Counted from the stretch's first letter, positions 1 to 11,860 are shown. The stretch is DNA of 32,000 bases from Paenibacillus nasutitermitis (GCF_014641075.1 NZ_BMHP01000001.1:1820171-1852170), one strand, 5' to 3'. Notes: generated by a model not told the origin, from the sequence alone. Translations and numbers: made by a program.

Positions 1-932
1 AATCCATCAAGGTCGGCAATCAGCATTATCGCGTATTGAAAATCGGGAATCCGAATCATTTGACGATTTACAGCAGCAACGGGAGTCAATATAAGGTTGC
101 AAGCCAACAGCTGCTCAGCAATATCTCGGCCGAAATCGGAATGCTGCAGCGACTGGAATACATCCTGCTGTTCGGTGGCATCGCCGGGCTTGTGATTGCG
201 GTTGCAGCGGGGTATTATTTGGCCAACCGGGCGCTGATTCCCATACGGCTGTCACTGGACAAGCAGCAGCAGTTTGTTTCCGATGCTTCTCATGAACTGC
301 GAACCCCGTTATCCGTCATTCAGGCTCATACGGAGCTTCTGCTGCGGCATCCCGAGCACACCATCGAGCAGGACAGCAAACATATTTCCACGGTTCTGCA
401 GGAGGCCAGACGAATGAGTAAGCTGGTCAGCGGGTTGCTGACTTTAGCCCGTTCAGACTCGAACCAGCTGGAGCTTGAGATTAAATCCGTCCAGTTGGAC
501 CAGATCGTTCAGGAAAGTGTACGGAAGATGCAGATGCTGGCGGAGCTCAAGGACATTATTGTGCAAACGGAAATTGACTCGTCAATTCCAATGAATGCGG
601 ATGAGGAACGGCTCCATCAGCTGCTCGTGACATTGCTGGACAATGCCATAAAATATACACCTGAGGGCGGACTTGTCCGTGTTGTATGCCGGAAGCTCGC
701 CCATTCCGTTCTATTGGAGGTGGAAGACACGGGAATCGGCATAGCGCCTGATAACCTCCAGCATATCTTTGACCGTTTCTACCGCGGCGATAAAGCACGT
801 ACCCGGCAGGAGGGCGGTTCAGGCCTGGGACTGGCCATAGCCAAATGGATCGTTGAGCAGCATCAAGGCAAAATCAGAGTGGAGAGCAAGCTGTCCATAG
901 GGACGCGTATTTTTATCACACTGCCGATTTAA
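1..932 (+). CDS. Sensor histidine kinase (HisKA/HATPase_c), 5'-truncated by the window edge
   Basis: The frame of listed ORF 36..932 stays open back to nt 3, so the gene starts upstream of the window. TM segment LLFGGIAGLVIAVAAGYYLA, H-box SHELRTPL, N-box LLDNAIKYT, G-boxes DTGIGI and GGSGLGLAI. Confidence 0.9.
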   Translation, partial: SIKVGNQHYRVLKIGNPNHLTIYSSNGSQYKVASQQLLSNISAEIGMLQRLEYILLFGGIAGLVIAVAAGYYLANRALIPIRLSLDKQQQFVSDASHELRTPLSVIQAHTELLLRHPEHTIEQDSKHISTVLQEARRMSKLVSGLLTLARSDSNQLELEIKSVQLDQIVQESVRKMQMLAELKDIIVQTEIDSSIPMNADEERLHQLLVTLLDNAIKYTPEGGLVRVVCRKLAHSVLLEVEDTGIGIAPDNLQHIFDRFYRGDKARTRQEGGSGLGLAIAKWIVEQHQGKIRVESKLSIGTRIFITLPI

Positions 933-945
933 AGTGGTTTGAGGG

Positions 946-972
946 CCGGGGACTTGTGTCTCCGGTTTTTTT
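946..972 (+). terminator. Rho-independent terminator after the kinase gene
   Basis: CCGGGGAC / GTCTCCGG 8-bp stem (one G-U pair), loop TTGT, followed by T7 (966-972). Confidence 0.75.
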
Positions 973-975
973 ATG

Positions 976-1031
976 TCCTTTTCAGCGTTGTTTAAGCTTC
1001 CTTTCAGCATCTCTAACGGATTTCTAAGAAT
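976..1031 (+). promoter_or_regulatory. Candidate regulated promoter of the ABC operon: direct repeats TCCTTTTCAGC (976-986) and TCCTTTCAGC (999-1008), then a -10-like TAAGAAT (1025-1031)
   Basis: Two near-identical 10-11-nt direct repeats with their TTCAGC cores 22 bp apart (two helical turns). The distal-to-proximal layout ends in TTCAGC-N16/17-TAAGAAT. It lies between the kinase terminator and the next gene. Confidence 0.35.
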
Positions 1032-1049
1032 CTGCTGGCATACTGGGCA

Positions 1050-2552
1050 ATGAATCTACTAATGTCTGAAGGGATGATGAAATTGTCTGCAAAATGGGGC
1101 AGGAAATCGGGTTTACTGATCGGGACGCTGCTTGTAACGGTTGCGATGTCAGCTTGTTCGCCGATAGGAGGCAAGAAAGACAAAGCGGGGTTGAACACAT
1201 TGGAACGGGAGGATTCGGGAACGCTGAAGGTTGCTTATTTCAATGAACAAAGCTTTTTAATGCAATACGGAAACGCCTTTCAAGCGATGTTTCCCAACAT
1301 TGCGTTGGAGGTCGTTTCAACCGAGTCTGTGTTCATCGCTGAGGATCCGGCAGCGGAGATGGAGAAGCTTGTGGATGAGCAGCAGCCGGATGTCATGTAC
1401 TTGACCGAAGAGCAATATTCCGTATTGGCGGGGAAAGGCAAGCTGTATGACCTGGATGCTGTCGTGAAGAAGGATGAATTCGACCTTGCGGGTTACCATG
1501 CTGCAGTAATCGATTTGCTGAAAGCACGCGGAGGCGGCAAGCTTTACGGCTTAAGTCCAAATTTCGGCAGTCAGGCACTCTATTATAATAAAGATTTGTT
1601 TGATAAGAATGGGATTCCTTTTCCGACGGATGGGATGAGCTGGGAGGAAGTTATTCAACTGGCATCCAGGTTTCCCGTTAAGAAAGACGGCGACGATGTC
1701 ATGAACGGCCTCTTCCAGTCTTCCCAGACCGCTGACTCGTTCGAGCTGATTCGTTCGATCGGAGAAGCCAAAGGGCTTCAGTATGCAGATACGGATGCGA
1801 AGACGTTATCGATCCAGACACCGGAATGGAAATCCATCTTCCAGATGGTTATCGAGGGATACAAAACGGGCAGTATTTCGATGCCGGCCGAAGGCGACAG
1901 CAAGAGCGGAGGTTTGATGATGCGAGAGATGGGCGGTGCTTCCACAGTCAGCATCGGCCCGGATTCGATGAGGTTTATGTCCGGCCAGGCTGCGATGACG
2001 ATCGATGGACCCATGATTATGAGCTTCTTGGGCATGAAAGGCAGCGGCGGTATGATGACGAAAGCAGCCACAGCCTCCAAAGACGGGAAGGTGATGGAAA
2101 GTCCGTTTAAAGATATTAACTGGGATGTTGTCAGCGTACCGGTTGATCCCACTCAGCCTGACGTATCCGGAGGCATGAGTCTGGAGAGTGTATTCTCTAT
2201 CAATGCCTCTTCCAAAAGCCTGCCCGCTGCATGGGAGTTAATCAAGTATGTGAACGGTGAGCAGTTGGCCAAAACCAATGCCATGTCTTCCCCGTCTTTA
2301 TCAGCCCGTACCGCATTCAAGAAACAATTGGACGACAAAAATATCGATGCTTTCTATGCACTTGGGGCGAATCAACAGAGCTTGCTGCAGGTGCTGCCGG
2401 AAGGTTTCGAAAATTCGTTCGCAAAATTGGCATCCGGGGAAATTAAAAAGGTCGTCGAAGGAGGACAATCGATTGACGACGCATTGGGTAAGCTCCAATC
2501 GCAGGGGCAGCAGCTGCTGACGCAATCGATCATGAATGCGGAGCAGGACTAA
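1050..2552 (+). CDS. Extracellular solute-binding-protein-like lipoprotein (ABC SBP family 1-like)
   Basis: Signal peptide plus lipobox LLVTVAMSAC. SBP-like core (YGLSPNFGSQALYYNKDLFDKNGIPFP..MSWEEV). Its stop overlaps the next start (TAATG at 2550-2554). The exact start is uncertain (ATG 1050, 1062, 1074 or 1077). Confidence 0.75.
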   Translation: MNLLMSEGMMKLSAKWGRKSGLLIGTLLVTVAMSACSPIGGKKDKAGLNTLEREDSGTLKVAYFNEQSFLMQYGNAFQAMFPNIALEVVSTESVFIAEDPAAEMEKLVDEQQPDVMYLTEEQYSVLAGKGKLYDLDAVVKKDEFDLAGYHAAVIDLLKARGGGKLYGLSPNFGSQALYYNKDLFDKNGIPFPTDGMSWEEVIQLASRFPVKKDGDDVMNGLFQSSQTADSFELIRSIGEAKGLQYADTDAKTLSIQTPEWKSIFQMVIEGYKTGSISMPAEGDSKSGGLMMREMGGASTVSIGPDSMRFMSGQAAMTIDGPMIMSFLGMKGSGGMMTKAATASKDGKVMESPFKDINWDVVSVPVDPTQPDVSGGMSLESVFSINASSKSLPAAWELIKYVNGEQLAKTNAMSSPSLSARTAFKKQLDDKNIDAFYALGANQQSLLQVLPEGFENSFAKLASGEIKKVVEGGQSIDDALGKLQSQGQQLLTQSIMNAEQD

Positions 2553-3307
2553 TGACAATTCTTCATTCTGTTAAACCGCCGATACAAGACATGGCAGCGC
2601 CCGAAGCCGGGGCTGTTCTGAAAAGCGAAGGAGCTTCGTTTCTCCAGGTGAATGACGTTCGCAAAAGCTTTATGTCCGGCAGCCGGAAAATCGAAGTGTT
2701 GAAAGGGATTGGGCTGTCGATTGCACCCTCTAAGCTCACCATGTTAAGGGGACGGTCCGGCTCGGGAAAAACAACACTGCTCAATTTGCTCGGAGGACTC
2801 GACCGGCCCACGGAAGGCGAAATCTATTTCCGCGGGCGGCCGCTCCATGCCTGGAGTGACAAGCAGCTGACCACAGTCAGACGACAAGAGATCGGGTTCA
2901 TATTCCAATCCTTCGCGCTGCTGCCCTTGCTTACCGCATGGGAGAATGTTGAACTTTCCTTGCGTCTGGCCGGCATTCCGCGAGCGGAATGGAAAGAGCG
3001 GGTCGGCCGCTGCCTGGAGCTTGTCGGCCTGACAAAACGGGCGTTTCACCACCCATCCGAGCTGTCCGGAGGCGAGCAGCAGAGGGTGGCGATCGCCAAG
3101 GGCATTGCCCACAAGCCAAAGCTTCTGCTTGCAGATGAGCCAACCGCTGAGCTGGATACGCAGATGGCGGCACGGATTATCGCGGTTTTCCGGGATATTA
3201 TCGAGGCCGAACAAACGGCAATTTGTATGACGACACATGATTCTACATTATGGGGGGCGGCAGACGTTGTATACCAGATGGCCGATGGTACGCTTGTACC
3301 AGAATAA
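2552..3307 (+). CDS. ABC transporter ATP-binding protein (MacB/LolD/FtsE-like), ATPase 1
   Basis: Walker A GRSGSGKTT, signature LSGGEQQRVAIA, Walker B LLLADEPT, H-loop TTHD. Confidence 0.9.
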   Translation: MTILHSVKPPIQDMAAPEAGAVLKSEGASFLQVNDVRKSFMSGSRKIEVLKGIGLSIAPSKLTMLRGRSGSGKTTLLNLLGGLDRPTEGEIYFRGRPLHAWSDKQLTTVRRQEIGFIFQSFALLPLLTAWENVELSLRLAGIPRAEWKERVGRCLELVGLTKRAFHHPSELSGGEQQRVAIAKGIAHKPKLLLADEPTAELDTQMAARIIAVFRDIIEAEQTAICMTTHDSTLWGAADVVYQMADGTLVPE

Positions 3308-4328
3308 ATGTAGGGCCTCCGGAGTCAGGCTGCTGCTGGCCGCAGTATGCCTTTCGCTATTGGCCGGGTGCTCCTTGCTTCCCCAGGAGGAAGAGCCGGA
3401 AAAGATGCCTGATATCCGGATACCGAAAATCTCCCAAAAGGCGGAATACCCGGTTAAACGAAGCACGTTGGAGCTGAAGGTGAGCGGAGCCGGAAAGCTG
3501 ATGTCGAAGCGGGAGGAGAATCTATTGTTTACGGTAGGCAATCTCCGGATTGCAGAAGTATATGTGAAAGCAGGCGACACGGTAAAAAAAGGGCAGCTGC
3601 TGGCCTCTCTGGATACGGGCGATATTGAAAGCCAAATCCGCCGTAAAGAGGTGGAATCGGAGAAATTCCAGCTTGATATGAAGGACTCCTTGCGCATATC
3701 GGATGAAGGAAATGCGGTAATGTCCCGGAAGCAGCAGCTGGACATTGCCTTATTGAAGGAGGAGCTTGCCGATTTGCGCAGCAAGCTCAATGGTACGAAG
3801 CTGGTAGCGCCATTCGCCGGGACCATCGTCAGTTTTACGGCGGAGAAAGGCGATAATACGATAGGTTACGAAAAAATCGGGCAGATCGCAGACATAAACT
3901 CGTTAATCGTCGCCGTGCAATTCAGTTCCAGCGATCTTGAAAAAATCGCCCCGGGGATGGAATCCATGGTCGGCATCAATGCCGCCGGTGATTATGCAGG
4001 TTCGCTAAAACGGCTTCCGCTGACTACGGAAGAGCCGAAGGATGGCGAGAAATCGCTGGATCTCTATACGCTGATCGACCTGCCCAAGCTGCCTGCCGGT
4101 GCCGCCAATGGGACGCCGCTCACCGCTTCGGTTATTGTGGAGCGCCGCAAAGATGTATTGACTATCCCGCTTGCAGCATTGCGGAAGCAGAACAGTCGCA
4201 ACTATGTGCTTGTATCCAATGCGGATGGCAGCAAAGGCGAGGTGGATGTGGAAATCGGTGTACAGACCTCGACGGAGGTGGAAATTATTAAAGGGCTGGA
4301 GGAAGGCCAGAAGGTCGTGGGGAAATAA
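3285..4328 (+). CDS. Membrane-fusion / periplasmic-adaptor (HlyD/MacA/YknX-like) lipoprotein
   Basis: Lipobox LSLLAGC when started at ATG 3285 (the listed ORF starts at 3237). Lipoyl-like hairpin (VKAGDTVKKGQLLASLD ... LVAPFAGTIV), a coiled-coil stretch and a C-terminal beta domain. Its stop overlaps the next start (TAATG at 4326-4330). Confidence 0.8.
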   Translation: MVRLYQNKCRASGVRLLLAAVCLSLLAGCSLLPQEEEPEKMPDIRIPKISQKAEYPVKRSTLELKVSGAGKLMSKREENLLFTVGNLRIAEVYVKAGDTVKKGQLLASLDTGDIESQIRRKEVESEKFQLDMKDSLRISDEGNAVMSRKQQLDIALLKEELADLRSKLNGTKLVAPFAGTIVSFTAEKGDNTIGYEKIGQIADINSLIVAVQFSSSDLEKIAPGMESMVGINAAGDYAGSLKRLPLTTEEPKDGEKSLDLYTLIDLPKLPAGAANGTPLTASVIVERRKDVLTIPLAALRKQNSRNYVLVSNADGSKGEVDVEIGVQTSTEVEIIKGLEEGQKVVGK

Positions 4329-7117
4329 TGCGGATTATGATCTATCTGGTTCTGAAAAGCTGGCAGAACCGCTGGTATACAATAGGTACGCTGCTTGGTC
4401 TGACTGTTGCGGTAGCGTTTGCCATGAGTATCCCGATGTACGCGGATGGCACGCTCAAGAGACTCGTCGCGCAGTCGCTCGCGGAAGAAACAAAAGGACT
4501 GCCTCCCGCTTCGCTTTATATGAAATATCAGTCCGCAGGAAGTGCAGAGACCGATATGGAAGGGCTCGAGGAAGTAAACCAGTGGATCAATGGCGAGCTT
4601 CCCGGAAGAATCGGATTCCCCAAGCTGGCATCCTCAAGCAAGATAAGCCTGCCGGTATCTGCCGTTCGGCCCGCTCTTGCCGGCAAGGACGGTTCCAGCC
4701 GACTGGTGCGTATGGAGCTTGCCTTCCAGAGCGGAATTACCGAGGGGGCGGATCTGGTTGAGGGAAAGCTGCCGCGGGATGGGATCCAGGGCGGCGTTAT
4801 TGAAGCTATGGTTCTGAGCGAGACGTTGACCCGCTACGGCTGGAAGACGGGAGACAGCTTCTATTACAGCGCCAAAGACAGCGACGGCAAAACAAAGAAG
4901 CTGATTGTTCAGATTGTGGGTACATACAAGCTGAAGGATGACACCGATTTGAGCTGGGCCATTGACGGAAAGGATAGTCTGGCCGACCTGTTTGTTGTCA
5001 ACCGCAAGACCATGACGGATACGCTGCTCAAGGACAACAAGCTTGCTCTGGATTCTGCCGGCTGGTTTGCGGCATTCGATTTACAGAATATACGCATCAG
5101 CGATTTGTCATCGCTCATCGGAGAACTGCAGCGGCTGGAGATCAACCTCCATCAAATGCTGGAGAATACAAAAGTGAATCTGACATTTATCGATATGCTG
5201 GGTGATTTCCAGCAGCAGAGCTTGCTGCTTCAGGCGATGCTGTTCGCGCTTGCCGCACCGGTCCTGGCGATGGTGCTGTATTATATTACGCTTAACGCAC
5301 AGCAATCGCTTGCCAGGCAGCGAAGCGATATCGCTGTGCTCCACAGCCGCGGCTCCAGTCCGCGGCAAATTATTTGGCTGTATTCCATTGAAGCGCTTCT
5401 GCTCGGCGGCGCGGCACTGCTCCTCGGACTTGGCCTCGCCTGGTGGATGGCCAAGACGATCGGCTCCTCGAGCGGGTTTCTTTCGTTTGTTGGCCGCAAA
5501 TCGATCCCTGTCGGGTGGAACAAAACCTCTTGGTTGTTCGGGATCTCCGCCGCGGCGCTTGCGGTCATCGCAACGATAGCACCGGTCCGGGCTTATGCCG
5601 GAACGTCAATCGTAGAGCATACGCAGCTGCGGGAAAAAGCCGGCAGACCGCCGTTCTGGCAGCGGCTGTATCTGGATGTCGCGCTGCTGGCATTGTCTGC
5701 GGCAGGCTGGTACATGCTCAATGCCGGGATTATCGCCACTGTCAGCACTAGCGGCGTCGCAGCGGAGATGCAGCCGGCGATTTTTATTGTTCCGGCCTTG
5801 TTCATTTTCGCTGGTGGACTGTTGTGCTTGCGTCTGTTCCCGCTGCTGCTCCGTTTCTGGAATAGGCTCACGAAGAATCGCATGCCGGTTCCGGTCTATT
5901 TAACCTTCACCCAGTTGTCCCGTTCGGCCGTATCGTTCTTTCCCCTGATGATTCTGCTCATTCTCACCATTGGGCTGGGTGTTTATAATGCATCAGCCGC
6001 GAGGACAATGGATGTGAATGCCTCTGACCGCACGAATTACCGGTATGGCAGCGATGTCGTACTGAAATCGGCATGGGAAGGCGTTCAGGACGAGAATGAC
6101 GAGAACAAGATCTATTATACCGAACCTTCCTGGCAAGCCTTTGACAAGCTGGATGGAGTGAAAGGCGCGGCAAGGGTCATGAAGACGACAGGCAAAGTTG
6201 AAATTAGCGGTAAAAATGCCGGCAGCGGGCAGCTCATCGGGATCGATAATGCCGCTTTTGCCAAAACGGCATGGTTACGCGAGGATTTGAATCCGTATCA
6301 TTTCTACGAATATCTTGACGCGCTGGGAACTGCGGAGCAGGCGGTACTGGTATCGGAGAAATTCGCTAAGCAAAATGGACTAAAAGAAGGCGACCCGCTG
6401 CGCATACTGATCGGTTACGATCATGTCGCCGTAGATTTCGTCGTGGTAGGCATCGTCAGCTACTGGCCGAGCTTATATCCGGATACGTCGCCGTTCTTCG
6501 TGGCCAATCTGGATTATATCTATCAGCAAATCGAGAAGATTCCGTACGAGGTATGGCTGAATCTGGAAGAAAACGCAAAGCTCGCCCCGGTGCTTGCGAA
6601 GCTGGCAGAGCGCGGCGTCGCGGTGACCAGCGTGGACGATGCGCGCAGCGAGCTCATCGAACGGCGGAATCATCCCGCTCAGGGCGGCGTGTTCGGGATT
6701 CTCAGCCTCGGATTCATCATCTCACTGCTGGTTTCGCTGCTCGGCTATCTGATTTTCTGGTTCTTCACCTTGTCGCGCAGAAGTGTCCAGCTCGGTATTC
6801 TGAGGGCAATGGGACTAACGGGCGGACAAGTAACCGGCATGCTGCTGCTTGAGCAGCTGTTCACGACCGGGTTGTCGGTTGTCTCCGGAATTGGTCTGGG
6901 CACATTCGCCAGCCGCCTGTTTCTGCCGTTTCTGCAGGGCGGAAGCGCTCTTGGGTCGCAGCAGGTACCGCCGTTCCGGATTGTGTTCGATGCTGCGGAT
7001 ACGATGAAGCTGTATATCGCAACGGGCATTATGCTGGCGGCCGGTGCCAGCTTGCTTATCCTCAAGCTGAGGCGCTTGCGCATTACACAGGCTGTCAAGC
7101 TTGGAGAAGAACGGTAG
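4328..7117 (+). CDS. Large ABC permease with two FtsX/MacB-type domains (929 aa)
   Basis: Two FtsX-type blocks, ~aa 300-420 (RQRSDIAVLHSRGSSPRQIIWLY) and ~aa 790-929 (RRSVQLGILRAMGLTGGQVTGML). Each is preceded by a large non-hydrophobic region. Confidence 0.85.
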   Translation: MRIMIYLVLKSWQNRWYTIGTLLGLTVAVAFAMSIPMYADGTLKRLVAQSLAEETKGLPPASLYMKYQSAGSAETDMEGLEEVNQWINGELPGRIGFPKLASSSKISLPVSAVRPALAGKDGSSRLVRMELAFQSGITEGADLVEGKLPRDGIQGGVIEAMVLSETLTRYGWKTGDSFYYSAKDSDGKTKKLIVQIVGTYKLKDDTDLSWAIDGKDSLADLFVVNRKTMTDTLLKDNKLALDSAGWFAAFDLQNIRISDLSSLIGELQRLEINLHQMLENTKVNLTFIDMLGDFQQQSLLLQAMLFALAAPVLAMVLYYITLNAQQSLARQRSDIAVLHSRGSSPRQIIWLYSIEALLLGGAALLLGLGLAWWMAKTIGSSSGFLSFVGRKSIPVGWNKTSWLFGISAAALAVIATIAPVRAYAGTSIVEHTQLREKAGRPPFWQRLYLDVALLALSAAGWYMLNAGIIATVSTSGVAAEMQPAIFIVPALFIFAGGLLCLRLFPLLLRFWNRLTKNRMPVPVYLTFTQLSRSAVSFFPLMILLILTIGLGVYNASAARTMDVNASDRTNYRYGSDVVLKSAWEGVQDENDENKIYYTEPSWQAFDKLDGVKGAARVMKTTGKVEISGKNAGSGQLIGIDNAAFAKTAWLREDLNPYHFYEYLDALGTAEQAVLVSEKFAKQNGLKEGDPLRILIGYDHVAVDFVVVGIVSYWPSLYPDTSPFFVANLDYIYQQIEKIPYEVWLNLEENAKLAPVLAKLAERGVAVTSVDDARSELIERRNHPAQGGVFGILSLGFIISLLVSLLGYLIFWFFTLSRRSVQLGILRAMGLTGGQVTGMLLLEQLFTTGLSVVSGIGLGTFASRLFLPFLQGGSALGSQQVPPFRIVFDAADTMKLYIATGIMLAAGASLLILKLRRLRITQAVKLGEER

Positions 7118-7139
7118 AGAGTATGAGGAGGGCCCCGCA

Positions 7140-8060
7140 ATGATCCATTGTGAAGGACTGATGAAAATTTATAAGACCGATGATATCGAGGTCGTTGCCC
7201 TGCAGGGCTTGAACCTGACAGTCAAACAGGGAGAAATGATGGCGATCATCGGCAACAGCGGCAGCGGGAAATCGACTCTGCTCAATATTCTCGGCGGTCT
7301 TGACAGACCTTCGGCAGGTACGGCGCTTGTGGGCAAATGGGATCTGCTGAAGATGACGAAGGAGCAGCTAATTGAATACAAGCGCGGAACCGTCGGCTTT
7401 ATTTGGCAAAACAATGGCCGGAATCTTGTTCCCTACCTGACGTCTCTTCAGAACGTCGAACTGCCGATGCTTATTCAGGGCAAAGCGGACAGGTCCTATG
7501 CCAAGCAGCTGCTGGCTGCAGTCGGACTTGAGCATCGCTTGGGCAGCCGCTTAACGCAGCTTAGCGGAGGCGAGCAGCAGAGGGTCGCAATCGCCATTTC
7601 CCTGGCAAACCGCCCTCAGCTTGTGCTTGCCGATGAACCGACTGGGTCAGTTGACAGCGCCACGGGAGAGCAGATTCTTGATATATTCCGCCGCCTTAAT
7701 CAGGATATGGGTGTGACGATTGTCATTGTCACGCATGACCTCTCCGTCGCGGACAAGGTAGACCGGGTTATTGCCATTCGGGACGGCATGACCAGCACAG
7801 AGTGGGTCAAGCGCAGCGCAGGCGAAGCTTCCGGGGATGGACATGTTGAAGAGTCCTCCCAAGATTCCGGGAATGCTCTATTCGGTTCGCATCATGAGGA
7901 ATTCGTTGTTATCGATCGCGCGGGCCGTCTGCAAATTCCCAAAGCGTATCTGGAAGCGATGAACGTCAGCGGCAAAGCGGTGCTTGAATTTGACGGCAAG
8001 CGGGTCACAATCGGCCCGCCCGAAGAAGATGCGGTTCGGTCCGAACCAACCGAAACGTGA
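7140..8060 (+). CDS. ABC transporter ATP-binding protein, ATPase 2, with a ~90-aa C-terminal extension
   Basis: RBS GAGGAGGG 7 nt before ATG 7140. Walker A GNSGSGKST, signature LSGGEQQRVAIA, Walker B VLADEPT. The tail contains VVIDRAGRLQIPKAYLEAMNVSGKAVLEFDGKRVTIGP. Confidence 0.9.
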   Translation: MIHCEGLMKIYKTDDIEVVALQGLNLTVKQGEMMAIIGNSGSGKSTLLNILGGLDRPSAGTALVGKWDLLKMTKEQLIEYKRGTVGFIWQNNGRNLVPYLTSLQNVELPMLIQGKADRSYAKQLLAAVGLEHRLGSRLTQLSGGEQQRVAIAISLANRPQLVLADEPTGSVDSATGEQILDIFRRLNQDMGVTIVIVTHDLSVADKVDRVIAIRDGMTSTEWVKRSAGEASGDGHVEESSQDSGNALFGSHHEEFVVIDRAGRLQIPKAYLEAMNVSGKAVLEFDGKRVTIGPPEEDAVRSEPTET

Positions 8061-8545
8061 GCGGACAAATGGAACAGGCAGCGGTGAATCTGGATGAACT
8101 ATATGCGGCACACTCCGCTTATTTGAACAAATATATGTATAAATTGACACGCGATCGGGAGGATGCAGCCGATCTAGTGCAGGATATTTTCCTGAAATTA
8201 TGCCTGCAGGGAAGTCTGCCGGATCATCCGAAAGCATGGCTTTCCCAGACCGGCTACCGGCTGTTCATCGATCAGTGGCGCCGCAAGCAGCGTTTGAGCC
8301 AGCTCCAGCTGGAGAAAGCTTACTGCAATATTGCCGCCCCGGAACAAGCCGCTCTTGATAGGGAATTCGAGAGATATGTAGATCGGCTGCTTTTGCGCCT
8401 CAATCCACGGATGCGTACTGCTTTATATCTGCGAATATACAGGCATTCCAGCTATGAAGAAATTGCCCGGATGCTAGATTGTTCGCAGAATACGGTCAAA
8501 ACCTTCATCCGGCGAGGCAAAGCGCAATTGTCCAAGTGGCTGTGA
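8057..8545 (+). CDS. ECF-type RNA polymerase sigma-70 family factor
   Basis: Region 2 (DREDAADLVQDIFLKL ... FIDQWRRKQR) and region 4 HTH (SYEEIARMLDCSQNTVKTFIRRGKAQL). The GTG start overlaps the stop of ATPase 2 (GTGA at 8057-8060). Confidence 0.85.
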   Translation: MSGQMEQAAVNLDELYAAHSAYLNKYMYKLTRDREDAADLVQDIFLKLCLQGSLPDHPKAWLSQTGYRLFIDQWRRKQRLSQLQLEKAYCNIAAPEQAALDREFERYVDRLLLRLNPRMRTALYLRIYRHSSYEEIARMLDCSQNTVKTFIRRGKAQLSKWL

Positions 8546-8715
8546 GGATGAACGACTGCAAGCTCCGTTACCGTCAGTTTACGTCCCAGAGTGGATGGGC
8601 GTATCAGAGATTCATTTTACCAGTTTGCAGGAGAAATGGAGTTCATAGGAGAATCTACAGACAATCAGTCATTAGACAAAAGGAAACAGAAGTATATAGA
8701 GGAAGGAGTCTCCAA

Positions 8716-9375
8716 GTGAACCGACATATAAGAGGCGTTATTTTAGAGGGGTATTCAAACGCTGGAAAAACGTCAGTTTTGAAAGCATTAAAGCTGCTGC
8801 TTGCAGAGGATGAGTCAGCAGAGCGCAGTATTATTGTTCTGAGCGAACATTACTCCCAAGTGTTAAACAATGTTCACGGTAATTTCCAACAGTTAGATCG
8901 CGATGAGCATCTTGTCTTATTACAGGAGCGTGTCGGGATGCTGCGTAAATTAAATGAATGGGCCAATTATTTGGGGCCGGATGCGTCGAGGGGATCAAGA
9001 GGAATATTTTTTATATTGGAAAGATTTCATTTAAATCATAGAGTTGCATTTCCCACTGCATCTTCAAATGATATAAAATCACTCGAAAATGAATTGGTCA
9101 AACTGGGAGCTCAGTGTGTATTATTAACGGTGTCGCCGGAAATTGTTGAGCAGCGAATGCAAAGCCGATCATCTCAGGAATGGACTAACATAACGCGAGA
9201 AGAAATTACGAAAGCAGCAGATGAGTTTATACATACGCAATCAGAATTGTATAAACAGTCTCTTCAATCTGACGTCCCTACTATAGAAATAAATACGGAT
9301 GCTAAAGACTGGGTTTCCTACGCAAACAAAATAATGGCGGTATTAAACGAAACAGAGAAATTCTCAAACTTATGA
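8716..9375 (+). CDS. P-loop NTPase, nucleoside/nucleotide-kinase-like, function unknown
   Basis: Strong RBS GGAAGGAG 7 nt upstream of GTG 8716. Walker A in VILEGYSNAGKTS. The listed ORF start 8479 adds an Arg-rich, non-protein-like 79-aa extension that overlaps the sigma gene. Confidence 0.6.
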   Translation: MNRHIRGVILEGYSNAGKTSVLKALKLLLAEDESAERSIIVLSEHYSQVLNNVHGNFQQLDRDEHLVLLQERVGMLRKLNEWANYLGPDASRGSRGIFFILERFHLNHRVAFPTASSNDIKSLENELVKLGAQCVLLTVSPEIVEQRMQSRSSQEWTNITREEITKAADEFIHTQSELYKQSLQSDVPTIEINTDAKDWVSYANKIMAVLNETEKFSNL

Positions 9376-9540: not shown

Positions 9541-10170
9541 GTGTTAGCCATATATGTCCCCAGCGCTTACCAAATGAAGGATAGAGACACCATTTTGGAC
9601 TTTATCGAAGAGAATAGCTTTGGCACACTTGTATCGAAAACAAACAGATTAACCGCAACACATCTTCCTTTTCTGCTGCAGCGTGAGGGGGGTGAGATCT
9701 ATCTCTACAGCCATATGGCAAAAGCAAACCCGCAATGGAACGAGTTGAACGGGGAGGTGCTCGTGATCTTCTCCGGGCCTCAAAGCTATATCTCTCCTTC
9801 CTGGTATGCGGAAAAAGAAGTGCCGACGTGGAATTATACCGCAGTCCATCTCTATGGCGAATTTCATCTGATAAACGAGAGAGAAGGGCTTCTTGACATC
9901 CTCACCCGGACTGTCGACCGTTATGAAAGCAGCTTTGCTGTTCCCTGGAGTTTAAATGAGGTAAGTGAAGAATATGTCAATCAGCTTGCCAGACATATTG
10001 TTGGCTTCCGGATTGATATCACGCATTACGAGGCTGCATGGAAGCTTCACCAGGATTATTCGGTCCACACTCAAAAGGGCGTCATTAAGGCACTCGAGAA
10101 CCGCCATGATGAAAACTCCCGTAAAATAGCGGGCTTGATGAAACGACACAATAACATATCGGACAATTAA
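9541..10170 (+). CDS. paiB: PaiB-family FMN-binding negative transcriptional regulator
   Basis: N-terminus IYVPSAYQMKDRDTILDFIEENSFGTLVS and the overall length are typical of PaiB. The start codon is unclear because GTG 9541 overlaps the only SD-like AGGAG (9537-9541). Confidence 0.7.
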   Translation: MLAIYVPSAYQMKDRDTILDFIEENSFGTLVSKTNRLTATHLPFLLQREGGEIYLYSHMAKANPQWNELNGEVLVIFSGPQSYISPSWYAEKEVPTWNYTAVHLYGEFHLINEREGLLDILTRTVDRYESSFAVPWSLNEVSEEYVNQLARHIVGFRIDITHYEAAWKLHQDYSVHTQKGVIKALENRHDENSRKIAGLMKRHNNISDN

Positions 10171-10279: not shown

Positions 10280-11860
10280 TTGAACAGGAGTGCTCCCCCT
10301 ATGCTTTCTAAAAATCGCCTCGGCGCTGGACCAAAAGTTTATTTCAGACCCGAAATCAAAAACTGTCCGCATTGCGAGAAAAAATTAGTGCGTTCGCACA
10401 ACGCATGGAACAAAAAAATCTCTACCTTGACCGGCGTCATTCACGCATGGAGCATGGCTTATACATGTCCCAACGAAAGCTGCTCATACGCCAGCATTAC
10501 CTATAAATCAGCAGAAGCAGAAGCGCTAAGCATGAAGCATTCTTCGTACGGCTATGACGTCCTCTGTCTCGTTGGCGAGTTGCGCTTCAAGCAACATCGC
10601 ACCTGCAAAGAAATTGCAGACGCGTTGAATGAACGTGGCATCGTAACCAGCGAACGATACGCGCAAACGCTGTACGAACGTTATCAAGCGCTGTTGGCCG
10701 CCAGCCTCGACGATCATGTCAGACAAAGTTTGGCAGAGACCACGGCGCAAAACGGCGGAATCATCCTTTCCATGGACGGCGTCCAACCCGAGAAGGGGAA
10801 CGAGATATTCTATGTCATTCGTGAGGTATTCAGCGGCACGATTCTGGCGGCTCGGAACATGAAGAGCGGAGCGGCAGCCGAACTGCGTACGCTGATCGAT
10901 CCCATTATCGATATGGGGTATCCCATCGTAGGCATTGTAAGCGACGGACAGGTTTCCATCCGGCAGGCATTCGAATCACTCTTGCCTGACGTGCCGTATC
11001 AGTACTGCCAGTACCATTACTTGAAAGATATTGCCAAGCCTGTCGTGGATGCGGATCGAAAGCTCAAAATGGAACTGAAAAAGAGCATGCGCGGCCTGCG
11101 GGATGTGGAACGAAAAATCGAGCAGGCTGAGAAAAAGGCAACGGAAGCTTCACAAGCAAACGCAGATGCGAATCCTGACTCTTCAAGCGCCGCAGCGGAA
11201 ACAACCGTGCTCGCAGAAACGCAGGTGGCGAAGGGATATGTGGCCGCTGTCCGCGCGTTGCTTCTGGAAGATGGTGAACCACCGCTTGATCTACCGGGCA
11301 TGATGGTCTACGAACGTGCCCAAGCCATACAGGCGTCGCTTGCGCGATGCTTGACTAAAAAAAGAGCCTCATCTGCTCCAGAGTCTGGTCAGAATTTTCA
11401 GTAAACTTGGCGATCAGGCCTCGCGCTATGAAGCCGTAGCCCGCTGGACGAAGCCTGTTGCCCATATTGCGGCAGCCTTGGAACCAGACGAAGACAAGAC
11501 CAGCGAAACCGTTGAATGGGAAATGACCCACGTATTGTACTGGCTCAAACAGACCTATACGGAAGAGAACGATTCCGTTATGGTCAACAATGTGACCAAC
11601 TATTCCCGCGGGTTCTGGAAAGGGCTGTTTACCTGTTACGATCATTATTTCATCCCGCGAACGAATAACGATCTGGAACAATTTTTTCGCCGAACTGTCA
11701 TCGCCGAATCACGGGCCTTCGTAACTGGAACAGCTACATCGTTCGAAACGGAGAAATGGTTGTACTTGTGGACGATGCGCTTCGACAAAAACACGTCATC
11801 GCCCGTTTGCGAACTGTGAGCTATGAAACGTGTACGCAGCGTAAGTCTCACTGTTCTTAG
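10280..11860 (+). pseudogene. DDE transposase (family not assignable by eye) with an N-terminal Zn-finger, disrupted by two frameshifts
   Basis: CPHCEKK...CPNESC zinc motif, D-containing blocks LSMDGVQPEKG and IVSDGQVSIRQA, conserved PRTNNDLEQFFRR...RRITG. Protein-like sequence runs in frame 2 (10280-11363), frame 0 (11352-11693) and frame 2 again (11690-11860). The switches fall at the A7 run 11357-11363 and near 11688-11696. Confidence 0.75.

Follow-up and report, generated by a model that had tools for sequence, protein, structure and literature searches.

The window analysed here, a stretch of 32,000 nucleotides (nt) from Paenibacillus nasutitermitis (GCF_014641075.1, NZ_BMHP01000001.1:1820171-1852170), carries near its start an operon that joins an ATP-binding cassette (ABC) system of the MacB/FtsX kind to a sigma factor of the extracytoplasmic function (ECF) family. 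An earlier note made from the sequence alone had counted seven genes in this envelope module; the list of open reading frames (ORFs) and a reading of the sequence instead revealed six co-directional, tightly packed plus-strand genes between positions 1050 and 8545, whose products were assigned to domain families using the Pfam and NCBIfam libraries. The genes and the one additional domain feature are:

1050..2552, plus strand: lipoprotein resembling a solute-binding protein (SBP), approximately 490-500 amino acids (aa); SBP_bac_8 6e-15, SBP_bac_1 1e-12 (1.3e-12)
2552..3307, plus strand: ABC ATPase 1, LolD/MacB type, 251 aa; ABC_tran 1e-32, LolD 4e-62
3285..4328, plus strand: membrane-fusion protein (MFP, periplasmic adaptor) lipoprotein, 347 aa; TIGR01730 RND_mfp 98.2 bits
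4328..7117, plus strand: fused double FtsX/MacB-type permease, 929 aa; FtsX twice, plus MacB_PCD
7140..8060, plus strand: ABC ATPase 2, 306 aa; ABC_tran 3e-30, LolD 2e-63
7881..8021, plus strand: predicted AbrB/MazE/MraZ-type (swapped-hairpin) tail domain of ATPase 2, from profile matches and an AlphaFold2 model
8057..8545, plus strand: ECF sigma factor, 162 aa from GTG 8057 or 158 aa from ATG 8069

These calls bear out all of the domain identities proposed in the earlier note, and every one of the tight or overlapping junctions that it described was reproduced from the ORF coordinates and the sequence. The SBP stop codon and the ATPase 1 start have a TAATG in common at 2550-2554, as do the adaptor stop codon and the permease start at 4326-4330. 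As a reading of the sequence found no in-frame adaptor start downstream of 3307, this gene must begin within ATPase 1, at ATG 3285, giving a 23-nt overlap. The permease and ATPase 2 are separated by 22 nt (7118-7139) that hold the Shine-Dalgarno sequence GAGGAGGG ahead of the ATPase 2 start at ATG 7140, and the TGA stop codon of ATPase 2 (8058-8060) overlaps the possible sigma start GTG 8057; database gene calls place the sigma start at ATG 8069, 8 nt past the ATPase 2 stop. The left boundary of the module needs revision: because ATG 1050 is unconserved and lies at the predicted transcription start, the SBP gene more likely begins at 1074-1083, behind GAAGGGATGA. The two-ATPase operon with its trailing ECF sigma gene is confirmed as real.

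Conservation of synteny had been named beforehand as a test of the module, and a survey of gene neighbourhoods found the module conserved. Permeases closely related to that of the window (66-79% identity) were identified in Paenibacillus, Cohnella, and 'Bacillus' sp. FJAT-28004, and 22 loci of this kind, termed A-type or window-type, keep the order response regulator, histidine kinase, SBP, ATPase 1, MFP, permease, ATPase 2. Synteny in at least 22 loci excludes a chance arrangement. The P. nasutitermitis genome itself encodes three paralogous modules, that of the window included, each with both ATPase types and the ATPase 2 tail; the other two lie at C2:1055525-1062540 (locus L064) and C2:1517058-1522640 (locus L065). 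The B-type paralogue has the order ATPase 1, MFP, permease, ATPase 2, SBP and a permease 46% identical to that of the window, and the C-type paralogue has the order ATPase 1, MFP, permease, ATPase 2, no SBP gene, and a permease 30% identical. Across 301 Paenibacillaceae genomes a permease homologue was present in 241, the window's own included, mostly of the B-type and in 18 cases of the window type. Outside this family, six of approximately 247 genomes from other families of the phylum encode a full-length permease homologue, and six of six loci from other Bacillota families contain both an ATPase 1-type and an ATPase 2-type protein, the latter with the tail. Within a few kb of the B-type copy are conserved pyrE/pyrF-like genes, assigned by their N-terminal sequences only, and the flanks of this copy gave no functional hint.

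The permease matches FtsX (PF02687) in two stretches (2e-18) and MacB_PCD (PF12704; 1.7e-7). Its hydropathy profile indicates approximately ten transmembrane (TM) segments, at residues 19-37, 299-317, 348-366, 402-420, 451-469, ~477-508, 534-552, 791-809, 851-869, and 894-912, such that one TM segment, a large loop, and three TM segments occur twice. The resulting pseudo-heterodimer consists of two 4-TM units linked via two helices, with ectodomains between TM1 and TM2 (~260 aa) and between TM7 and TM8 (~240 aa). Two features by which type VII ABC systems are recognized are both found here, namely an FtsX-type 4-TM unit whose first and second helices are separated by a MacB-like extracytoplasmic (Porter/Sabre) domain and, in both ATPases, a nucleotide-binding domain (NBD) of the LolD/MacB subfamily. 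LolC was the sole permease match among PDB sequences at E ≤ 0.01 using phmmer, and the predicted topology is that described for YbbP, which has ten TM segments in two 4-TM units, two linker helices, and ectodomains between TM1-2 and TM7-8 (PMC12646458). The closest known system is YbbAP-TesA from Escherichia coli, a type VII ABC system (PDB 9GE6-9GE8; PMC12646458), with which the locus shares a single fused 10-TM permease bearing MacB-like ectodomains in these two positions, separate NBD subunits, one of which (ATPase 2) matches YbbA in its predicted fold, and, probably, a function set by the extracytoplasmic partner that engages the ectodomains. Unlike YbbAP-TesA, in which the partner is an esterase, our locus encodes an adaptor and an SBP-like protein, both lipoproteins, as partners, belongs to a monoderm host, and has a two-component system and an ECF sigma factor attached.

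The two ATPases are 36-41% identical to one another, and each has intact Walker A, Q-loop, signature, Walker B with the catalytic glutamate, and H-loop motifs. In a maximum likelihood tree of 30 module ATPases and three outgroups, ATPase 1 and ATPase 2 proteins formed separate clades with support of 100/100 and 96/97, respectively, and both clades share the same internal order, with the C-type branching first, then the proteins from other families, and then A', B, and A, where A' denotes a further subfamily with permeases 42-44% identical to that of the window and a two-component system upstream. Because the orders match, the duplication that gave rise to ATPase 1 and ATPase 2 predates the subfamilies, and the two lineages diversified together. 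Both types were present in every homologous module examined. The characterised type VII machines, including MacB, LolCDE, FtsEX, BceAB, HrtAB, and YbbAP, as well as the other solved systems, use two copies of one ATPase (PMC12646458, PMC5985334). In contrast to YbbP, all modules of the present family encode two distinct, co-evolving ATPases, one of them with an AbrB-like tail, and a literature search for two-ATPase MacB systems returned nothing relevant. Given the parallel clades, the intact motifs, the co-occurrence of the two types, and the pseudo-heterodimeric architecture of the fused permease, we can soundly infer from these sequences that ATPase 1 and ATPase 2 form an obligate heterodimer. 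The heterodimeric motor suggested in the earlier note is thus supported, and its observation of two distinct ATPases stands as made.

ATPase 2 differs from a canonical NBD in its C-terminus, where an acidic, poorly conserved, disordered linker leads into a conserved domain of approximately 47 aa. By itself, the tail from the window gave a weak MraZ match below the cut-off (E = 0.009). An exhaustive search of 1.8 billion representative sequences returned 78 matches to the tail, and those checked against Pfam were C-termini of ABC ATPases or short fragments, apart from two spurious FG-GAP repeat proteins. When 76 sequences, comprising 75 tail homologues and the query, were scanned, PF04014 (MazE/SpoVT-AbrB) was matched by 30 (best 2.6e-9) and MraZ by 21, one above the cut-off. 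Searching the P. nasutitermitis genome with the tail profile retrieved the three ATPase 2 paralogues, followed by two true PF04014 proteins. A model of ATPase 2 built from 86 sequences using AlphaFold2 had a mean predicted local distance difference test score of 76, with 78-88 in the tail, and placed the tail elements in the order beta-beta-alpha-beta-beta (strand 252-258, a two-residue strand at 264-265, helix 268-273, and strands 281-284 and 289-292). Searching with the whole model using Foldseek, the closest folds were the NBDs of MJ0796, MacB, YbbA, and LolD, and also BceA and FtsE; the top 50 structural matches were all NBDs, and none reached the tail. The profile matches and the model together suggest that the ATPase 2 tail is an AbrB/MazE/MraZ-like domain, and a literature search for AbrB-type domains on ABC ATPases found nothing relevant. 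In Cohnella cholangitidis (L006:10855-11759), ATPase 2 is called as a 273-aa protein with the tail readable only in another frame, which reflects either a sequencing error or a shift of frame within the linker.

Outside the membrane, the permease is predicted to be accompanied by two lipoproteins. The adaptor, with the lipobox LLAGC, exceeds the cut-off for TIGR01730 RND_mfp (98.2 versus 94.9 bits) and also matches HlyD_D23, HlyD_3, and MacA (3e-22). The SBP-like protein, with the lipobox AMSAC, matches SBP_bac_1 and SBP_bac_8 above their cut-offs, and the PDB entries that it matches best are those of sugar- and oligosaccharide-binding proteins. The SBP gene lies upstream in A-type and A' loci and downstream in the B-type paralogue, so that the coupling of an SBP-like lipoprotein to an exporter-type system proposed in the earlier note holds at the shared TAATG and extends across subfamilies as a conserved partnership. 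In some loci, two or three tandem SBP-like genes lie by the MFP and permease genes (L063:9893-14032, L051:4176-7300, and L058:2106-5119), an arrangement that, by analogy, resembles multi-substrate importers. Both the sugar-binding families to which the SBP belongs and these tandem genes would suit an uptake route in which the SBP captures an oligosaccharide-like solute that is imported via an unconventional FtsX-type unit. We regard this as highly improbable, as no importer is known among systems with the MacB/FtsX fold, whose members offer substrates no path through the membrane (PMC5985334, PMC12646458), the adaptor gene was present in every homologous locus whose fetched DNA reached that side, and the C-type paralogue has no SBP gene. 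The ORF and domain calls also revealed no importer permease of the BPD_transp_1 type in the operon, where the FtsX-type permease is the only membrane unit. The sugar-type SBP and the multiple SBP genes at some loci instead suggest a glycan-containing ligand.

Upstream of the operon, three further features were identified:

1..932, plus strand: 3' two-thirds of a sensor histidine kinase gene (436 aa in full, starting 378 nt ahead of the window), HisKA and HATPase_c
946..972, plus strand: terminator-like hairpin 3' of the kinase gene, CCGGGGAC, loop TTGT, GTCTCCGG, then T7, from a reading of the sequence
979..1044, plus strand: putative operon promoter, five direct repeats phased at 11 bp (979-1033) and a -10-like CATACT (1039-1044)

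The earlier note had left the kinase at 1-932 unconnected to the operon, and its partner, an OmpR-type response regulator (Response_reg and Trans_reg_C) whose gene overlaps the start of the kinase gene, lies outside the window. Hydropathy analysis places two TM segments of the kinase around a 145-aa extracytoplasmic domain. The regulator-kinase pair precedes the operon in 21 of the 22 A-type loci, and the contig of the twenty-second ends short of that point. An 85-nt stretch before the operon aligns without gaps in all 22 loci, with most repeat columns conserved at 90-100%; the repeats read TTTCAGCGTT, TTTAAGCTTC, TTTCAGCATC, TCTAACGGAT, and TTCTAAGAAT in the window and have the consensus TTTCAGC, TTTAAGC, TTTCAGC, TCTAAC, and TTCTAAG. 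The T-run at the hairpin position is also kept in related loci, and the hairpin was not among the terminators listed by a simple terminator scan. To judge from its sequence, the arrangement of repeats and -10 element is the layout expected for an activator of the OmpR/PhoB type. In the 22-locus alignment, the promoter consensus is identical in the 14 loci that contain the sigma gene and the eight that lack it. As the promoter is the same with and without sigma, the operon is not driven by sigma, and autoregulation of this promoter by the ECF factor was rejected for the same reason.

The sigma factor itself matches Sigma70_r2 (1.9e-10), Sigma70_r4_2 (1e-13), and TIGR02937 (74.7 bits versus a cut-off of 42.9); domain calls revealed no sigma3 match, and the protein comprises sigma2 and sigma4 only, without an extension. 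Ten of the 301 family genomes contain an orthologue (E ≤ 1e-51), which in each case immediately follows ATPase 2 of a window-type locus, and the gene is missing from 8 of the 18 window-type loci, in genomes with no orthologue elsewhere. A collection of 5.8 billion proteins contained only 30 homologues at E ≤ 1e-8, approximately 29 of them at 51% identity or more. The lack of an adjacent anti-sigma gene reported in the earlier note is upheld, as 8545-8716 holds no anti-sigma-like ORF and only a 42-aa ORF with neither TM segments nor a Cys motif, and the region beyond sigma varies between genomes, with no conserved gene. The closest paralogue in the same genome shares 32% identity and has its own putative anti-sigma gene downstream. 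The P-loop ORF that follows sigma was considered as its regulator and rejected because it is not conserved beside sigma.

Control of an ECF factor by transcription through a two-component system has precedent in the Streptomyces coelicolor sigE system (SigE-CseBC, ECF39), as described in the literature on ECF groups (PMC7826278, PMC8999054). In the reclassification by Casas-Pastor et al. (2021; PMC7826278), ECF234 is described as confined to Firmicutes and without an anti-sigma factor, its neighbourhood comprises an ABC transporter and a two-component system having a DNA-binding regulator, and the latter system is proposed to control its transcription; its representative is APQ59451.1 of P. 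polymyxa (PMC8999054). Our locus resembles ECF39 and ECF234 in having no anti-sigma and an OmpR-type regulator and kinase nearby, and resembles ECF234 further, by the published description of context only, in its ABC transporter and Firmicutes host. Unlike in these groups, sigma is here the optional last cistron of a transporter operon, and no P. polymyxa protein is among the 30 homologues that it has in the 5.8-billion-protein collection (E ≤ 1e-8). By analogy, the context of the locus fits the description of ECF234, and ECF257 is another candidate group.

In the A' loci, a different ECF sigma factor of approximately 200 aa occupies the same slot after ATPase 2 (L059:4526-5152, L060:4556-5170, and L061:4595-5194, all on the minus strand; P. 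roseus, P. tarimensis, and a Paenibacillaceae bacterium). This protein reaches approximately 45 aa past sigma4, has no BLAST similarity to the sigma factor of the window, and is part of a large ECF family that was found in 168 of the 301 family genomes and has many different contexts. In a Cohnella-type genome (genus inferred), the window-type sigma gene is followed immediately by a convergently oriented gene for a member of this A' family (G111:C4:283183-283746, plus strand).

The earlier note had proposed that transport or mechanotransmission controls sigma activity and had pointed to the ATPase 2 tail as the contact. Such a transporter-gated sigma factor would be held by the ABC machine, for example through the AbrB-like tail, and released upon a change in its cycle or substrate load. 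The observations that no anti-sigma gene is adjacent, that sigma always lies straight after ATPase 2, overlapping or abutting it, that the A' loci carry another ECF sigma in this position, and that ATPase 2 has an extra domain of a protein- or DNA-binding type are all compatible with this, and ECF groups with transporters in their context have been left mechanistically open, as for ECF257, whose context includes ABC transporters and AAA ATPases (PMC8999054). However, the tail is equally conserved where there is no sigma, in the B- and C-type paralogues, in other families, and in 8 of the 18 A-type loci, domain scans of the operon proteins revealed no sequence resembling an anti-sigma domain, and a dedicated two-component system and promoter offer a simpler means of control. 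We therefore consider gating by the transporter quite unlikely, and the more specific proposal that the ABC machine is itself the missing anti-sigma, sequestering the factor on a site such as the tail until the ATPase cycle releases it, very unlikely; if true, it would represent a new form of ECF control, by transport flux, in which two unrelated sigma factors had been recruited repeatedly to one docking site. Because sigma is optional and the promoter is the same without it, sigma is instead a probable output of the two-component system rather than a transporter-gated factor, and the two-component system upstream offers the simplest explanation for the missing anti-sigma.

A two-component system beside an FtsX-type ABC transporter is also the layout of the Bce modules, and Gram-positive systems composed of an MFP and a MacB-type transporter protect against peptides (PMC5985334). 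Both points would fit a system for detoxification of antimicrobials of the YknWXYZ, SpMacAB, or Bce kind, in which sigma and SBP are passengers and the cognate anti-sigma is encoded elsewhere. The locus resembles YknWXYZ from Bacillus subtilis and the MacAB-like Spr0693-0695 from Streptococcus pneumoniae in its adaptor, MacB/FtsX-type permease, LolD-like ATPase, and monoderm host, but these systems have a 4-TM homodimerising permease and one ATPase type and are without the SBP, the AbrB-like tail, and the sigma factor. With BceRS-BceAB it shares the adjacent two-component system, the 10-TM FtsX-type permease, and the layout of two NBDs to one permease. The Bce hallmarks of a kinase without an ectodomain that senses within the membrane and a single permease ectodomain between TM7 and TM8 are, however, absent: BceS has no ectodomain and senses via the transporter, and BceB has one ectodomain, whereas the kinase at our locus has a 145-aa ectodomain and the permease has two, and there are two ATPase genes, an MFP, and an SBP. 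The conservation of the SBP across subfamilies shows that it is not incidental, sigma orthologues never occur away from the locus, and no separate anti-sigma candidate turned up, although no genome-wide search was made. Detoxification with passenger genes is thus unlikely.

Beyond sigma, the P-loop gene (8716-9375), with weak AAA_18 and dTMP-kinase-like matches, most likely starts at GTG 8716, behind AGGAAGGAG, and is followed by a gene encoding an FMN_bind_2 protein (9541-10170). Neither gene is conserved beside sigma in relatives, the G+C content of this DNA is 0.41-0.48 compared with 0.50-0.56, and the interval from sigma to the P-loop gene showed no terminator. A 374-aa ORF at 10280-11404 has weak transposase matches only (IS256, IS66, and ISKra4).

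We consider it reasonably likely that the locus encodes a two-component-controlled type VII ABC envelope machine that combines a heterodimeric motor with an adaptor and an SBP-like partner, and to which sigma is attached as an optional second-tier output whose activity would follow its synthesis. In this scheme, the kinase would sense through its 145-aa extracytoplasmic domain, and the phosphorylated OmpR-type regulator would bind the five phased repeats and activate the operon promoter. The fused, YbbP-like 10-TM permease would present two non-equivalent docking sites, filled by the two different co-evolving ATPases, with ATPase 2 contributing the cytoplasmic AbrB/MazE-like tail, while outside the membrane the two permease ectodomains would act together with the MFP lipoprotein and the sugar-type SBP-like lipoprotein. 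By analogy with other type VII systems, ATP-driven mechanotransmission would act on a target in the outer leaflet or wall zone rather than on a cytoplasmic solute; we would guess that this target is an antimicrobial or an envelope compound that is amphiphilic or bears a glycan, and that the SBP-like partner and the adaptor conduit receive it or hand it on. As the last cistron, sigma would be made only when the operon is on, such that an anti-sigma would not be needed, and would extend the two-component response to a second regulon, as in the sigE (ECF39) system of S. coelicolor and as predicted for ECF234.

Several points weigh against this interpretation. ECF sigma factors usually autoregulate, and no ECF-type promoter was identified at the locus. 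The second, unrelated ECF sigma in the same slot of the A' loci hints at a link to the transporter beyond co-expression, and the 4-nt overlap (or 8-nt gap) with ATPase 2, which orthologues retain, could also be accounted for by a stoichiometric partnership. The -10 element and the regulator sites are predictions from conservation. The permease gave no sequence match to YbbP when compared with PDB sequences using phmmer, although no profile search was made. To our knowledge, an SBP partner is unprecedented among characterised type VII systems, and the role that we assign to it is a guess.

The partners of type VII systems are extracytoplasmic proteins (PMC12646458), and the biology of the characterised ones is set by the partner that they move. 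The family to which the locus belongs is a conserved, uncharacterised variant of the type VII ABC systems of monoderms, and would bring three additions to them: two different ATPases obligately paired on a single fused permease, an AbrB-like domain that one of the two carries on the cytoplasmic side, and a sugar-type binding lipoprotein in the partner role. With a copy in approximately 80% of the sampled Paenibacillaceae and in other Bacillota, it represents a sizeable blind spot in the biology of the monoderm envelope, and its two-component-controlled copies with an anti-sigma-less sigma factor would provide a compact example of a two-component-to-ECF cascade or, failing that, of transporter-dependent control of a sigma factor.

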